A stretch of 64,000 bases of DNA from Acanthopagrus schlegelii (Eukaryota), in NCBI GenBank assembly GCA_041753875.1, contig CM085480.1:5799958-5863957 (forward strand). The letters run 5' to 3'. Of this stretch, positions 2,842 through 64,000 are shown in pieces. How positions within the stretch are numbered: the stretch's first letter is position 1; each line of letters starts with the position of its first letter. The position numbers were made by a program, and so were the translations under genes. Under the pieces are notes generated by a model, which saw only the letters and a program-made list of their open reading frames with translations, was not told the DNA's origin and searched no databases.

Positions 2842-4502
2842 TGAAATCAAAGCAAAATAGAACCTCCACAGCAACATTCCATTCCGGACCTATATTAAGG
2901 GCAAGTTCACAGGACAACAATTCTTCAGTCTGATTTTCCATCGAACGCAGACACAGCCGTGTTATTGTGAGAAAGAAAAGTGAGGAACGACGTGACGATA
3001 TCTGTTTATCAGAGACAGCATTTTTCTGAGACAGAATAGCCAAACGAAATGGGAAAGACTTATCCAAGAGCTCAAAGACACCAAAGAGCAGCTGAGGAAG
3101 CAGAAATCCTTGAAGGGAATGTATCTCAACAGGGGGAAAGGGACCACCAGAGAGCTGGAGCGGCTGAGAAAGTACAGCGATGAGTTAACTCTCCGCAATG
3201 CAAAGATAGCTACTCAGGTGAGGGACAACACCAGGCAGAAGGATGTTATAAAGATTACGAGGAGCTGAAGGTTGCCCATTTAATTAACAAGGAGAAGTTT
3301 CAAGCTGACCTCCAGGCAGAGAGGCATGCGTCTGTTCATGATACATGCATACCAAATGTCATTCATGTATGCATGTAGGAAGGGGAGCTTGGATTTTTAA
3401 AACACCTTTGATCAGTTATCCTCAGGAGGGCATTGGCAATAATTGTACAGTTTCGTGTTAATCTTACCTACCAATGTGGAGATATAAAATACTGCAATTT
3501 AAAGAGCGCTACCTTGTGGTCATCGCCCAAAATTTTGCACAGAGTCTCAGGGGCTCATGGGGAAGTAGTCACCTGAGTTTCATGTCATTCAGACCCACCA
3601 ATGTGGAGATATGCAACACTTCCACTTTGGAACAAAATCTGCAGGAAGTTGTTATTTAATGACTTGAGTATTGTTTGGAATCTCAAAATTATTTTAATAA
3701 CTTTTTGTCAGGAGGGTCAATAGATACTGTGTGTAAAGTTTGGTGCAAATCGGTGAAATCGCCTGAGAGGAGTTGGAAAAAGTAGGTTTGCGAAGTTTTG
3801 CGAATTTGCTGAAAAAAATGGCAGGCAGAAATGGGCGTGGCTTATATCATGAGATTAAGCACAATTCAGTGAATGTATGGATATAAAGCTTTTGAATGTG
3901 TGACAAAGTATAAGAATTATAAGCCAAAACACACTTTCCTTGATTATAGTGCCACCTAATGGTGGAAATTACGGATGGCAATAGATTATGAAATTTTCTG
4001 GCAGGTGTGACGTTTATTCAAAGTTTAGTGAGTTTTGGGGCATGTTCAGGCAGTGAAAAATGCAGACAAAAAATCGACACTGCAAAAACAAAAGGGCCCG
4101 AGCAGGTCTCGACCTGCGAGGTCCCTGTAAAGATGGGTTTTTAATATAAAAATGGGTTCTAGAGGTTCAGCACACATTAATTCACTCCTGTTTTGAGGTA
4201 GTTTAAAGTCAGCGATCCAACATGAAATATTCCATTAATTCATCCTGAAATATATATGCAATGTATCGCAACCATTTCAAGGTTTTAGAAAAGGTTCAAT
4301 TGAAAAGGACCACAGACAGTCGCGTGCCATTACACAGATGTGGAACTTAAAGGTATTGAGCTGGTGGTGGATGTTTCCTGTGCAAGCTATTTTGTCACCT
4401 CTAAAAACTGATGACTTCCTGAAAACCGTGAGAGACGTTGAATCCACCATCATCATATACATGCGCTGACCGTTTAGGAGAGAGCTGGTTACCTTTTGAG
4501 CG

Positions 4503-4572
4503 ATGGAGGAGATCTATGCAAATGTTGATTACAACAAGCCTGTCGACCCAACACCTTCAACAAATCAGACAG
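4503..4572 (+). CDS. Gene B exon 1: cytoplasmic tail MEEIYANVDYNKPVDPTPSTNQT, exits in phase 1
   Basis: ATG at 4503, followed by the donor cag|GTAAGA. The same exon recurs at 18584, 36572 and 50700. Confidence 0.75.
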
Positions 4573-4666
4573 GTAAGAATGCTCACTCACACACATGGGT
4601 TGTGCATATTGATGTTGTGTATTATCCTGTGTTATGATCATGATATCATGTCCTCTCTGTGTTCAG

Positions 4667-4768
4667 GTCCCAGGAGCTCAGAGAGCAGGCTTCATGGAGC
4701 CGTGGTTCTCTGTCTGGGGCTGCTCAGTGTTGTCCTGCTGGTTGGACTCATCAGCCTCGGTGTCACCT
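4667..4768 (+). CDS. Gene B exon 2: signal-anchor/TM segment GPRSSESRLHGAVVLCLGLLSVVLLVGLISLGVT
   Basis: Acceptor tgttcag|GTCC and donor cct|GTGAGT. It is 102 nt long and keeps the phase. The hydrophobic stretch fits a type II membrane anchor. Confidence 0.8.
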
Positions 4769-5178
4769 GTGAGTCTGTTTTTCATCAGTCAGTGTCGGGG
4801 TGAACTTGTGAGAGATGCTCGTGTCTTTATGAATATGATTTTACAGCCATGGTAAATATATTCCAGCAGCTAACGCAGCAAAATGACATATTTGAACATC
4901 TGTGGATGATGAAGAGATGAACCATGTTTGAATTCAGGTGCAGGTTGCTCAGTATTTAGATATTTGCTGGGGAAACATCAGAGCATATTATTATAAAGAC
5001 TGTACATCACTGTTTGGACTTCAAATTCATTTCAGCCCTCAGGTTGATATTTCATAGACTGCATGAGCAGAATGAACATCTTCCTCTGTCAGGACAAATT
5101 AGGATGATTTTGACTCAAATATAGAACCTTTAGTCAGTATTGGTATCAATGCATGAGTGAATCTTGATTTAATTTCAG

Positions 5179-5304
5179 ACCGGGATTTAGCTGCAGAACA
5201 CTCCACTGTCAAAGCCAACCTGACGGAGCGTCTCCAGGCCAGTAATGACAAGCTGTCCTCAGTATCCAAAGAGCTGGACAGACTTCAGAGTTTGTCCAAA
5301 CAGA
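5179..5304 (+). CDS. Gene B exon 3: coiled-coil neck (Y)RDLAAEHSTVKANLTERLQASNDKLSSVSKELDRLQSLSKQ
   Basis: Acceptor aatttcag|AC and donor caga|GTGAGT. It is 126 nt long and phase-consistent. The sequence has a heptad-like leucine pattern. Confidence 0.8.
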
Positions 5305-5894
5305 GTGAGTGCTCGCCTGCCTGTGTGTGTTCTGCACAGCTGTCTGTTAACATGAAGGACAGGAGCTGCCACGGCCTCATTTATAGAACACCTATATACA
5401 GAGACTGTGCTGATCAGACACTCTCACTTCTGTCAGTTACATTTATGGCCGGTTTGACTTGTACCAATAACTTTATTTATTTTTTAATTCCTTCAAGCAG
5501 GAATATATATATAAGTTAAAGCACCTTTTTACTTGGATATCTTAACAAGTTCCAGATTATAGTGTTTTTTTTAATGCTATGTCTTCAGTGTGGCCACTGA
5601 CTCTGTGACAGGATCCTTCCTCAGCTTCACACTTTCACTTCCCTATAAGGTTGTGAACCACCTAATGAAAGTGCAGCCTTTTCTAGGGTGGAATACAATA
5701 TTTTTCGCTCTATGAAGATTGTTCCTTTTTTTCGAGCAATTAAAAAAAATGATCTAGTCAATTACAAGCTTTGTGATTAATTAATCAAAATCAATCACAT
5801 ATGGAGCCGATATTTTAACCTTCAGTCCTCCGGTTGTATACAAATTCATAATTGCACAAAACATTGCTCCTGTAAATAGTTCCATGGGCATTTT

Positions 5895-6300
5895 AATGCA
5901 GCACCACTCCATTGTGGTTTGGTATTAATATCCATGCTAAACTTTTCAAATGCATTCATTCCTGTAGTAGTCTATTCTTTATAGTACATACATTCTAAAT
6001 GTCTATTTTTATTCCAGTGTCATAAAGAGGCCGTCTTTGTAGCAGGAATATTGGTCAGGTCGAAGCATTTATGTGTGCAGCGTTTGAGTCCGGGACAAAT
6101 TTCATCAGGGGGGACAGCAGAGTGTATTGTCATCTTCATTGACATCATTCAGCAGGAAAATTATTCTTGAAATTAAACGTGCAAATAACAACAGAAACAG
6201 CTGACAGGCCCTTACACAAAAAGTGAAGACATAAATTAAAGCGGACATCTGCTGCGACAATTTCTTATATACAGGCCACTCATTTAAAGAAAAAAATGAA
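5895..6300. repeat. Interspersed repeat family (about 400-450 bp)
   Basis: A homologous copy lies at 34840-35290. It differs from this one, so it is not a tandem-duplication duplicate. A fragment lies at 16960-17010. Copy-2 duplicates lie at 37965-38370 and 49090-49140. Confidence 0.55.
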
Positions 6301-62325: not shown

Positions 62326-63433
62326 GCAGCTATGCGCAGAGGAAGATGGCATGAATCAATCAAATTCCTTTATTGTCCCGCATGGTGCATTGCGGCGGTG
62401 TTCGGTCTCCGCTTGGTAACAGATTGTTAATGTGGGGTTGAACCCAGAGGCAGTAGGACAGTTCAAAGTCAACATTCTCTGGCCTAGTTCATGAGCCATG
62501 AACAAAACAAGAGAGACACAAGGTGTAAACTGCAAAACTGAACCAAGTTATTAGCAAAGTAACCAAACGATACTTAAAGTCCTGATCTGACCTAAACAGG
62601 CCGACGCCAACTAAACAAAAAAAAGGTGCTCTTAAACAGGAAAGCCAAAAACAAGAGAGCTAAAAGCAGAAGAGAGGGCATCTCAAACACAGCCAGGTCA
62701 TAAATACTCCTGGGAGGACTGATCAGGTGCTCCCAGGGGTGTTGATTATCACACCAGGAACCTGCAGGACAACAGACAAACATGAGGGAAAACACACACA
62801 CCCACACACAGCAGGCCCTGCTAAAGCATGCGGGCCATCACACCATAAGGAATGGAACAAGCTGGCACAGGAGCAGTGAAGAGACAGGGTTAATACAGCA
62901 GGGGTTGATGAGATGATGACATGCAGGCGTGTCCCTCAGCTGCAGCAGGCACAAGTCAGTGGACACAGACTCACACTAGGGAGGAGCAGGTGATGGAGGA
63001 AGGAGGGGGAGCAAACAGATGTTATCAAATAACTAGCCCACATGGTAATCGTATGACTTCAGACTAACCAGAACGAAGCATTTTACGACACTCTGTTATA
63101 CACGTTACTATACATTGATCAATGTAAAAAGTTGTAAAATGAGAGTTAGAATAGTTTGTCACTAAATACGGATTGGTGATAAAAGTGTCTCCGTGTTCGA
63201 TGTGATGAAGTTTGGTTTCATTTGGTCTCATTTGGACACTTGTTAGCAACTGACTTTCTAAGACATGTAAACACTTATAAATCAAATGTAAAGTAAAAAT
63301 ATTTATTATATTCTGTTGTACTCATAAAAGTTTGAAGTGAATGTTACTGTACTGTTCAGATGAATCCATATTAAATTTGATATGGTTCAGAATTAAATAG
63401 AAACAATGGCATTATTTCCTTTACCTTGAACAG

Positions 63434-63540
63434 GAGTTGATCTCTAAATTCATCAAGGAAGATACTTGGATTGGTTTGAATGACAAAGACGAGGAGGGGA
63501 CCTGGAGATGGATAGATGGAACTCCATCACCGACTGTGGT
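63434..63540 (+). CDS. Gene E exon 5: CRD exon 2 ELISKFIKEDTWIGLNDKDEEGTWRWIDGTPSPTV(V)
   Basis: Homolog of 31315-31421. Confidence 0.8.
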
Positions 63541-63651
63541 GTAAGGCAAAGAGAAGATGTTCAACACCTGATTTCAATATTGACACATATACAATGTTTG
63601 AATAATAGTTATCAGAATCAGACTGACTCACTTCCTTTAATAACCTCCTAG

Positions 63652-63808
63652 GTACTGGTTGGAAAAACAGCCTGATAATGGTGGTCGAAGCCAAAAGTGG
63701 GGCGAAGAGGACTGTATACACCTCGTATTTGGTGTGAATGTCAAAAAAAACTGGAATGATGTGCGGTGTGATAAGCCTTTGAAGTGGATCTGTGCCAAAA
63801 TGCCTTAG
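63652..63808 (+). CDS. Gene E exon 6, intact: YWLEKQPDNGGRSQKWGEEDCIHLVFGVNVKKNWNDVRCDKPLKWICAKMP*
   Basis: The frame is continuous to TAG at 63806-63808. It has no homopolymer frameshift, unlike gene C. Confidence 0.8.
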
Positions 63809-63846
63809 TATTTACATGAACTTTGAAACAAAGCATTTATGAATAC

Positions 63847-63982
63847 TGAGAGAGAGAGAGAGAGAGAGAGAGAGAGAGAGAGAGAGAGAGAGAGAGAGAG
63901 AGAGAGAGAGAGAGAGAGAGAGAGAGAGAGAGAGAGAGAGAGAGAGAGAGAGAGAGAGAGAGAGAGAGAGAGAGAGAGAGAG
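63847..63982. repeat. (GA)68 microsatellite after the gene E stop
   Basis: Direct reading. It is about twice the length of the copy-1 repeat. Confidence 0.95.
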
Positions 63983-64000
63983 CACTGTCTGGCTGAGTGA

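Follow-up and report, generated by a model that had tools for sequence, protein, structure and literature searches.

The 64,000-nucleotide stretch of black seabream (Acanthopagrus schlegelii) DNA considered here (contig CM085480.1, positions 5,799,958 to 5,863,957; hereafter, the window) carries the left end of a tandem array of C-type lectin genes. Downstream of the last exon of a lectin gene termed Z, a pair of genes termed A and B occurs twice on the plus strand (A1 and B1, then A2 and B2), so that the CD209/CLEC4-like lectin pair recognized in the initial annotation is indeed doubled. The two pairs lie in copies of a block sharing 99.0% identity, and the junction between these copies is located in the proximal upstream region of gene A, where an older upstream sequence of another type meets the A body. 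The whole arrangement is a young tandem A-B array, which probably originated by unequal crossing-over, i.e., non-allelic homologous recombination (NAHR), between the conserved 5' tracts of gene A and of a putative downstream paralogue, X. The features central to this interpretation are the following (all on the plus strand).

475 to 630, plus strand: upstream lectin gene Z, last exon with stop, EPN-type, YWRKDEPNNGGGNPLWGEEDC...WICAKMS and stop (tblastn, translation)
4152 to 4370, plus strand: A1 proximal upstream region, A-type, containing the short repeat 4142-4288 (86% identity plus gaps vs. copy 2)
4324 to 5273, plus strand: conserved 5' tract, i.e., 5' untranslated region (UTR)/promoter end and exons 1-3 (self-comparison)
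4371 to 4385, plus strand: left breakpoint interval in copy 1, between the last Z-type states of A2 (4369-4370) and the first shared derived state (4386)
4386 to 31793, plus strand: copy 1 of the recent block, the part with a counterpart in the window (megablast, blastn, global alignment)
4503 to 11032, plus strand: gene A1, QPD-type type II C-type lectin, intact, 233 aa (spliced model)
4503-4572, 4667-4768, 5179-5304, 8370-8512, 10668-10771, 10876-11032, plus strand: A1 exons (GT/AG introns)
18584 to 31690, plus strand: gene B1, QPD-type, with a +1 frameshift in exon 6 (spliced model, translation)
18584-18653, 18748-18849, 19259-19426, 28830-28972, 31315-31421, 31533-31690, plus strand: B1 exons
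31794 to 34239, plus strand: 2,446 bp of unit 1 that unit 2 lacks (window-end sequence comparison)
34162 to 36439, plus strand: Z-type upstream module, the end of unit 1 and the distal plus proximal upstream region of A2 (A. latus hits, diagnostic states)
36440 to 36454, plus strand: copy-2 breakpoint interval, with X-type upstream on its left and A-type sequence on its right (diagnostic sites)
36455 to 64000, plus strand: copy 2 of the block, ended by the window edge (megablast, blastn)
36572 to 43100, plus strand: gene A2, intact, 233 aa (spliced model)
36572-36641, 36736-36837, 37247-37372, 40438-40580, 42736-42839, 42944-43100, plus strand: A2 exons
50700 to 63808, plus strand: gene B2, QPD-type, intact, 248 aa (spliced model)
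50700-50769, 50864-50965, 51375-51542, 60854-60996, 63434-63540, 63652-63808, plus strand: B2 exons

The gene models were derived by mapping homologous proteins back to the DNA with in-frame GT/AG junctions, which yielded four six-exon genes on the plus strand. A composite translation of the exons had close homologues in sparid fishes, the best one (97%) in Acanthopagrus schlegelii. The B2 product matched Pfam Lectin_C (E 4.1e-21, 76 bits vs. a cutoff of 22.6), and its best matches among solved single-domain structures, Mincle, SRCL, DC-SIGNR and CLEC4F, had similar scores (E 1e-22 to 1e-26). The models possess six cysteines, the long-form set of the C-type lectin domain (CTLD); a tail (MEEIYANVDYNKP...), a hydrophobic segment (AVVLCLGLLSVVLLVGLISLGV) and a neck (DLAAEHSTVKANLTERLQASNDKLSSVS...) were read from them by eye. 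According to these models, A and B are group II-like type II C-type lectin receptors with a short tail, one putative transmembrane (TM) segment, a coiled neck and a CTLD. The source names "CLEC4E-like" and "CD209-like" are automatic, and on the sequence evidence orthology to any mammalian CD209/CLEC4 gene is not established.

The products of A1 and A2 differ only by two replacements, S30R and R59W. B1 and B2 are separated by 15 coding substitutions, eleven of them non-synonymous, and by the state of exon 6, where a run of A10 in B1 (31623-31632), corresponding to C + A8 in B2, gives a +1 frameshift. If real, the frameshift truncates the domain before the WND motif, so that WND and the last two cysteines are lost; B1 is thus a true pseudogene or only appears as one through an error in the homopolymer. 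Five of the B1/B2 changes fall within 8 nt beside the QPD motif (31594-31606 vs. 63713-63725), yielding the loops GGGDAKWG and GGRSQKWG, respectively. The two versions resemble different paralogues of Pagrus major, GGGDPQWG (P0131) and GGQSQKWG (P0008), respectively, which points to exchange with other paralogues, or else to a polymorphism of long standing, and away from new mutation.

The two copies of the block are arranged head-to-tail on the same (plus) strand and keep a single register between 4386-31793 and 36455-63911, with a period of 32,069 bp. Global alignment over 4386-31729 revealed 268 mismatches in 27,153 ungapped columns, i.e., 99.0% identity and a Kimura two-parameter distance (K2P) of 0.0099; the 53 indel events over 4503-31729 are mostly 1-5 bp long, with a maximum of 102 bp. 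Megablast self-comparison returned the duplication as four blocks of 96.7-99.0% identity with gaps counted (4324-14136/36393-46189, 13773-26630/45903-58740, 26700-30613/58764-62631 and 30606-31793/62725-63911), and the more sensitive blastn returned a single alignment, 4152-30613/36253-62631. Such similarity greatly exceeds what chance would give. No runs of N were found in the window. Thus, the self-alignment called for in the initial annotation bears out its description of colinear, nearly identical copies, but the near-identity does not start at 4150 and 36250, where it had been placed, and the register is lost at 31794-34239.

The unit is about 32.07 kb long, and the window holds the left end of the array together with the first ~1.9 units; the right end of unit 2 falls beyond base 64000, and the left, internal junction is mapped to 15 bp. 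Near the window end the register of copy 2 breaks: the (GA)n tract at 63848-63982 is followed by 22 final nucleotides which are identical to 34240-34261. The 2,446-bp deletion in unit 2 begins at this expanded (GA)n, and the edges of the gap share AGAG microhomology with it. As judged from its flank-like beginning, the segment 31794-34239 is ancestral, because 31794-32400 is homologous to other lectin 3' flanks, both in the window (656-816 and 11033-11231) and downstream of gene C of the yellowfin seabream, Acanthopagrus latus; it was either deleted from unit 2 or lost in the assembly. No counterpart of 34262-36252 was found elsewhere in the window. Divergence between the copies is heterogeneous along the unit (dispersion index 4, p 8e-11), with K2P of 0.0053 over 4503-13109, 0.0064 over 14200-20148, 0.0137 over 20149-28558 and 0.0145 over 28559-31729.

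The left junction was analyzed in an alignment of the upstream regions of A1, A2, B1 and of A. latus A and Z, in which the variable sites were classified and polarised by the A. latus orthologue. Copy-to-copy identity is 86%, plus 56 gap columns, over 4152-4323 and 94.4% (10 mismatches in 179 positions) over 4324-4502, reaching at least 99.3% only from about 4500 onward; the excess of mismatches in 4324-4502 above the local rate is significant under each assumed rate (Poisson p 1.5e-8 to 1.6e-5). To the left of 4370, A2 shares no derived state with A1, with the single exception of 4169, and displays Z-type states instead (GTGCC at 4294-4296, a 12-nt insertion, 4318-4319, 4323 and TT at 4369-4370) along with many private changes and a 42-bp deletion. 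At 4386-4410, seven derived states are common to A1 and A2 and absent from both A and Z of A. latus. Since the Z-type states end at 4370 and the shared derived states begin at 4386, the recent copy starts within 4371-4385 and, correspondingly, 36440-36454. This breakpoint lies within the conserved 5' tract, ~120-130 bp upstream of the ATG and ~90-100 bp past the 3' end of a short repeat of about 145-150 bp. The earlier placement of both junctions, at ~4150 and ~36250, inside a short interspersed nuclear element (SINE)-like repeat is thus not sustained, the repeat itself being a part of the lectin upstream module, as argued below.

On the two sides of the junction, the upstream sequences have different histories. 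The proximal upstream region of A1 is colinear and near-identical with that of A. latus A, the flank left of 4152 included, and its similarity to 36253-36439 is old, of paralog level only. By contrast, 34162-36402 yields five colinear plus-strand matches (72-87%) to the A. latus Z upstream region (8852-9830), and Z-type diagnostic states also occur within 36351-36439. Judging from these matches and states, 34162-36439 was not copied from the A1 flank but represents the upstream module of an old Z-type paralogue, the putative donor gene X. The boundary between A-type and Z-type upstream sequence at 4146-4152 is also present in A. latus (self-hit 27718/9630), which lacks the block duplication there; because of this occurrence in an unduplicated locus, the edge at 4152/36253 is regarded as an old paralogy boundary and not as a new junction.

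Copies of the short repeat were found at 4142-4288, 36253-36350 and 7798-7954/39866-40022. Every copy is on the plus strand and in a lectin context, i.e., upstream of Z, A1 and A2 or, in both species, as a relic in intron 3 of gene A. In the window, ARAGORN detected no tRNA-like head and Rfam gave no match; no repeat sequence was found to the left of 36253. Considering its constant orientation and context, the repeat is a piece of the upstream module of the lectin family and not a demonstrable independent SINE. The intron-3 relic can be described as follows.

5943 to 7954, plus strand: upstream-module relic within intron 3 of A, in two parts, 5943-6410 and the short repeat at 7764-7954 (recognized by the A. 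latus Z upstream)

The relic is colinear with 9120-9771 of the A. latus Z upstream, has its copy-2 equivalent at 38011-40022 and is also present in intron 3 of A. latus A. It runs directly into the exon-4 region, the intervening 5' tract being missing. An ancient fusion, in which the 5' half of a tandem gene was joined to the 3' half of the gene following it, may have given rise to the A-type gene.

The conserved 5' tract recurs at 18404-19353, 36392-37341 and 50520-51469, with 97.5-97.8% identity between the A and B genes, and at 9820-11055 and 27896-29344 (L001) and ~9821-11270 (L002) of A. latus. In both species these tracts, which comprise the 5'UTR and the tail, TM and neck exons with their introns, extend for ~0.95-1.4 kb and are 97-99% identical among paralogues; outside of them, paralogous lectin genes are only 83-88% identical. 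Such identity in both species would make the 5' tracts a suitable recombination substrate. Within A. latus, the 5' tracts of paralogues are closer to each other (98.3-99.1%) than to their A. schlegelii orthologues (~98.1-98.2%). The pattern suggests concerted evolution of the signalling/anchor half of these genes while the lectin domain diverges.

The A. latus sequence used for comparison consisted of two overlapping loci (59.5 kb) carrying PARP4, Z, A and two further genes, C and D. Positions 1-20148 of the window are colinear with it at orthologue-level K2P of 0.020-0.035 (0.023 for the initial 13 kb, 0.035 for 14.2-20.1 kb), unbroken across 4152; because this colinearity runs straight across 4152, A1 is taken as the ancestral positional copy. 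Beyond 20148 only paralog-level A. latus hits remain (72-88%). No second A-type gene was found in the sampled A. latus region or among the A. latus proteins searched. The distance to A. latus A is practically the same for A1 (K2P 0.0204) as for A2 (0.0205), and the two are far closer to each other (0.0053), hence the duplication is placed after speciation, in the A. schlegelii lineage. For the parts which can be calibrated, its age would be roughly 0.2 of the species divergence. On this comparison the expansion is lineage-specific and young, A. latus having a single unit in the sampled region.

Gene B has a composite relationship with A. latus. Its upstream region, exons 1-3 and the start of intron 3 (18404-20148) are ~93-97% orthologous to gene C; exons 5-6 together with the intron ends (28559-31719) are A-type-like (~84-86%) and unlike gene C. 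The possibility that A. latus gene C is a simple B orthologue was rejected, since it corresponds only to the 5' half, up to 20148, and B exons 5-6 are A-type-like.

The array seemingly continues beyond the window. Proteins matching the window genes are annotated consecutively on Chr9 of the telomere-to-telomere (T2T) assembly of A. schlegelii, GCA_041753875.1: the A1 product equals KAM8749959.1 exactly, the A2 product equals both KAM8749960.1 and KAM8749964.1 exactly, the frame-corrected B1 product equals KAM8749963.1, and KAM8749958.1 (P0126) ends in exactly the residues encoded by the last exon of Z. In the order of accessions, 58 is Z, 59 and 60 are A, 61 is B, 62 A, 63 B, 64 A, 65 B and 66 B-like; this order is taken as positional, because Z and A1 are adjacent in the same order in the window. 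The absence of an annotated B between KAM8749959 and KAM8749960 is expected if B1 is frameshifted in the T2T annotation as well. The arrangement would then be Z-(A-B)x4-X, i.e., about four A-B units, so the two copies counted in the initial annotation are probably an underestimate. The protein variants alternate: units 1 and 3 are alike, having R59 in A and a B of the B1 type at all ten variable sites, and so are units 2 and 4, having W59 in A and a B of the B2 type, which hints that a two-unit block was duplicated again. The product of B2 had no exact match in the protein collection searched.

The origin of the array can be envisaged as follows. The conserved ~1-1.4 kb 5' tract of gene A would have paired, by misalignment, with that of X, a gene with a Z-type upstream. 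The recombinant order, namely B, spacer and X upstream followed by the A body, B and onward, would be the arrangement seen in the window. A2 would accordingly be a chimera whose X-type upstream sequence starts no farther right than 36253 (probably already at 34162), ends at 36439 and is continued by an otherwise ~99.5% identical copy of A1. X itself would follow the last unit, and KAM8749966.1, which is B-like and comes directly after the last B by accession order, is a candidate for it. Later misaligned exchanges between units would have produced about four units with alternating variants, and subsequent divergence would have included point mutation, microsatellite change, the 2.4-kb deletion, the B1 frameshift and patchy exchange with other paralogues. 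Unequal crossing-over, proposed in the initial annotation, is thus the likely mechanism, but its occurrence between SINE copies is not supported, as the switch lies outside the repeat.

Several circumstances weigh against this reconstruction. The window includes neither the right end of the array nor the proposed donor X. The number of units is derived from the order of accessions and from variants of the proteins instead of from DNA, and the arguments that bear on assembly errors come from the sequence and the T2T annotation, not from reads, which matters for the copy number. The junction is a patchy transition zone and not a clean switch: four further A1/A2 differences occur in 4386-4502 (at 4436-4486), two of them B-like. 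B2 differs by three exon-6 residues from KAM8749961.1, its expected positional match; the mismatch may signify that the window comes from another haplotype or assembly, or that the positional mapping is imperfect. The copies also diverge unevenly, by 0.5-0.6% over 4.5-20 kb and by 1.4% over 20-31.7 kb, which may reflect later exchange between units or faster mutation in sequence rich in transposable elements (TE). The latter was considered because transitions are enriched there and because between-species divergence is also region-dependent. The unevenness need not signify gene conversion between units, since between-species divergence varies too (0.020 vs. 0.035) and the more diverged part is TE-rich. 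Sequencing error as the source of the low transition/transversion ratio (129:139) was dropped, the between-species ratio in the same region being similar (163:133).

Among the other explanations, an unlikely one is that a non-homologous or replication-based duplication with edges at 4152/36253 was followed by conversion of the A2 upstream, or that an old duplication was homogenised in its interior but stayed diverged at the edge of the array. The abrupt onset of similarity at 4152/36253, the frequent conversion-like homogenisation of the 5' tracts in this family and the heterogeneous divergence along the unit are all in accord with such a history. At the same time, the Z-type similarity of the A2 flank reaches 34162, some 2 kb past 36253, so that a lectin upstream module already occupies the left side of the supposed edge; this makes a conversion scenario less economical. 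Moreover, the 4146-4152 boundary splits A- and Z-type upstream sequence in unduplicated A. latus as well, and the equidistance of A1 and A2 from the A. latus orthologue along with their shared derived states is what a young copy would exhibit.

It is quite improbable that the duplication is an assembly artefact, i.e., two haplotypes placed in tandem or an over-expanded repeat. The genome-wide heterozygosity of A. schlegelii, 0.59% (PMC11868651), is of the order of the copy divergence (0.99% on average and 0.5% in the gene-A part); besides, the B1 frameshift is located in a homopolymer and the 2.4-kb difference adjoins a long (GA)n, a kind of site that is error-prone for assemblies. Still, a chimeric junction with at least 2 kb of old paralogous upstream sequence is not expected of a haplotype copy, there are no N gaps in the window, and the multi-nucleotide patch distinguishing B1 and B2 has versions each resembling a different Pagrus major paralogue. 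With four A-type and four B-type genes, ordered and distinct, the T2T annotation contains more than two haplotypes could supply. The T2T assembly was built from HiFi and ultra-long Oxford Nanopore (ONT) reads and is gap-free, with a quality value (QV) of 52.95 (PMC11868651).

Unequal crossing-over between flanking ~150-bp SINE copies, which would have left a hybrid SINE at 36250, is very unlikely: the repeat does sit where copy similarity starts (4142-4288, 36253-36350; third copy at 7798-7954) and its reduced internal identity would fit a hybrid derived from two different copies, but the low identity persists past it (several mismatches and a 12-nt indel in 4289-4323, Z-type or unique states in 4324-4370, the switch only at 4371-4385), the repeat and the next ~100 bp behave as one block homologous to the A. 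latus Z upstream, all copies are plus-strand and colinear within the larger lectin upstream module, no repeat sequence occurs left of 36253, and neither a tRNA-like head (ARAGORN) nor an Rfam hit was obtained.

With NAHR between the 5' tracts as the probable origin, a bolder extension may tentatively be entertained, namely that the array is very young, copy-number-unstable and species-specific, has a two-unit periodicity, contains interior A copies that received foreign Z-type upstreams by recombination, and has had the loops beside the QPD motif of its B copies shuffled by exchange with other paralogues; we regard this as possible, on the doubtful side. If true, the duplication would have conferred regulatory and ligand-binding diversity on a pair of pathogen-recognition receptors, beyond dosage, and the array may be polymorphic among black seabream individuals.

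Tandem clusters of C-type lectin genes are familiar from vertebrates, including mouse CD209/SIGNR, human CD209-CLEC4M, CLEC4 and the natural killer (NK) complex. The seabream genes resemble those of these clusters, the products being type II membrane lectins in which a short cytoplasmic tail is followed by a TM segment, a neck that contains repeats and a single CTLD. The head-to-tail organization and lineage-specific expansion by unequal crossing-over are similar as well, as are the variable neck repeats, the pseudogenes and the diversification around the Ca2+/sugar site. Unlike in those clusters, the seabream unit is a two-gene 32-kb block with 99% identity, confined to one seabream species; unlike DC-SIGN (EPN), seabream A and B carry the galactose-type QPD. 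The lectin cluster of the NK complex has been reviewed (PMC1193534). Overall, the locus exemplifies the ordinary expansion of an immune C-type lectin cluster by birth and death of genes, a known process which would not surprise a specialist; a literature search found no published description of the A. schlegelii A-B lectin array.

NAHR between paralogous genes is known to generate chimeras and promoter swaps in the opsin arrays, alpha-globin, the CYP21/C4 RCCX module and KIR haplotypes. As in these systems, the seabream breakpoint is situated in a region of high paralog identity and combines the upstream of one paralogue with the body of another, in an array able to grow and shrink by misalignment, with hints of a two-unit higher-order periodicity. 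The differences are that the seabream crossover is upstream of the ATG, so that the upstream is swapped and the A2 protein almost unchanged, and that the reciprocal parent does not appear in the window. With segmental duplications mediated by TEs of the Alu/SINE type it shares a short repeat at the point where copy similarity begins; unlike in these, the identity switch is outside the repeat, which belongs to the upstream module of a gene family and showed no SINE hallmarks with the tools used.

The locus offers a clean, datable case in an aquaculture species, in which the copies of a two-gene block multiplied once black and yellowfin seabream had separated, with the junction mapped to 15 bp. 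It also carries an annotation lesson: a short repeat at the edge of a duplication need not be a transposon or a recombination substrate. With units 99% identical, short reads will be mis-mapped, and calls of single-nucleotide polymorphisms (SNP), expression and copy-number variation (CNV) for the lectin receptors will become confounded. At least one copy, B1, may be a pseudogene, and A1 and A2 encode nearly the same protein under different upstreams, so that assignment of expression requires paralog-specific markers. The practical value lies in black seabream studies which need mapping and annotation that tell paralogs apart, or estimates of copy number; the locus is also a clean example of a promoter-swapping junction.

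The remaining features of the block are mobile-element remnants, microsatellites and a small copy difference.

13776 to 14099, no strand: (TA)n microsatellite, 324 bp vs. 451 bp in copy 2 (45820-46270; TRF)
17497 to 18405, plus strand: Tc1-like fragment, 5'-truncated, ending in CACTGTA at 18405 (HTH_Tnp_Tc3_2 E 3.9e-5, below the curated cutoff)
20807 to 27732, both strands: nested remnants of long interspersed nuclear elements (LINE) in B intron 3 (RVT_1), copy-2 equivalent ~52913-59797
29255 to 30304, minus strand: gypsy-type long terminal repeat (LTR) retroelement fragment with protease (PR)/reverse transcriptase (RT) (RVT_1 E 2e-5, below cutoff), copy-2 equivalent ~61280-62329
31730 to 31793, no strand: (GA)32 just past the B1 stop, 64 bp vs. 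135 bp, (GA)67, in copy 2 (63848-63982; TRF)
62624 to 62725, plus strand: 102-bp segment in copy 2 only, flanked by the 8-bp direct repeat AGGTGCTC (self-comparison)

Each TE-like open reading frame (ORF) peptide (Tc1, the LINE RT sets, gypsy PR/RT, a BED finger and a possible piggyBac) recurs at the equivalent position in copy 2, which agrees with the earlier statement that the duplication is younger than the TE insertions. The Tc1 fragment ends ~180 bp upstream of the B1 ATG and has its equivalent at 49615-50522; its terminal 27-mer occurs only at 18378-18404 and 50495-50521. A left terminal repeat was looked for, and only the right end exists, so the element is a truncated fragment. Since the same Tc1 end is present in A. 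latus, the insertion predates the species split. In intron 3 of B, a plus-strand LINE at 24669-26664 (RVT_1 E 1.6e-13) splits a minus-strand LINE, which has RT and endonuclease (EN) at 20807-23075 (RVT_1 E 5.2e-6) and, possibly, ORF1 at 27394-27732. Pfam returned no hit for the putative piggyBac, the LINE endonuclease, the ORF1-like pieces or the left-flank ORFs, the labels of which come from reading the peptides. The 102-bp difference may be due to microhomology-mediated loss of the segment from copy 1, or else to a small insertion in copy 2 that generated an 8-bp target duplication.

The Ca2+/sugar-site motif is QPD...WND in A and B and EPN...WND in Z. The cluster thus appears to mix predicted sugar specificities, because Z (475-630) is of the mannose type, EPN, and A/B (10876-11032 in A1) of the galactose type, QPD. 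Compared with A, the B genes have one extra 42-bp (14-aa) neck repeat, SVSEERD(L/Q)LNANLT (19338-19380 and 51454-51496; position 5258 in A1). More neck/exon-3 repeats occur in homologues from Sparus aurata (P0002, P0006) and in KAM8749966.1; neck length is variable in the seabream lectin family, as it is in mammalian DC-SIGNR. Tail residues 1-12 of A1, A2 and B (e.g., 4503-4538) read MEEIYxNVDYNKP, with acidic residues ahead of YxNV, and tail position 6, the x of this motif, is A, G or E among the B copies. The YxNV motif may serve as a tyrosine-based signalling or sorting motif. Finally, the intergenic region between Z and A1 (816-4150) contains long minus-strand ORFs, including a Cys-rich stretch, CRCKKSMCARGCSCARANVKC, which had no Pfam hit; they may constitute a decayed mobile element or the remnant of an unannotated gene, and the region is ~96-98% conserved in A. 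latus.

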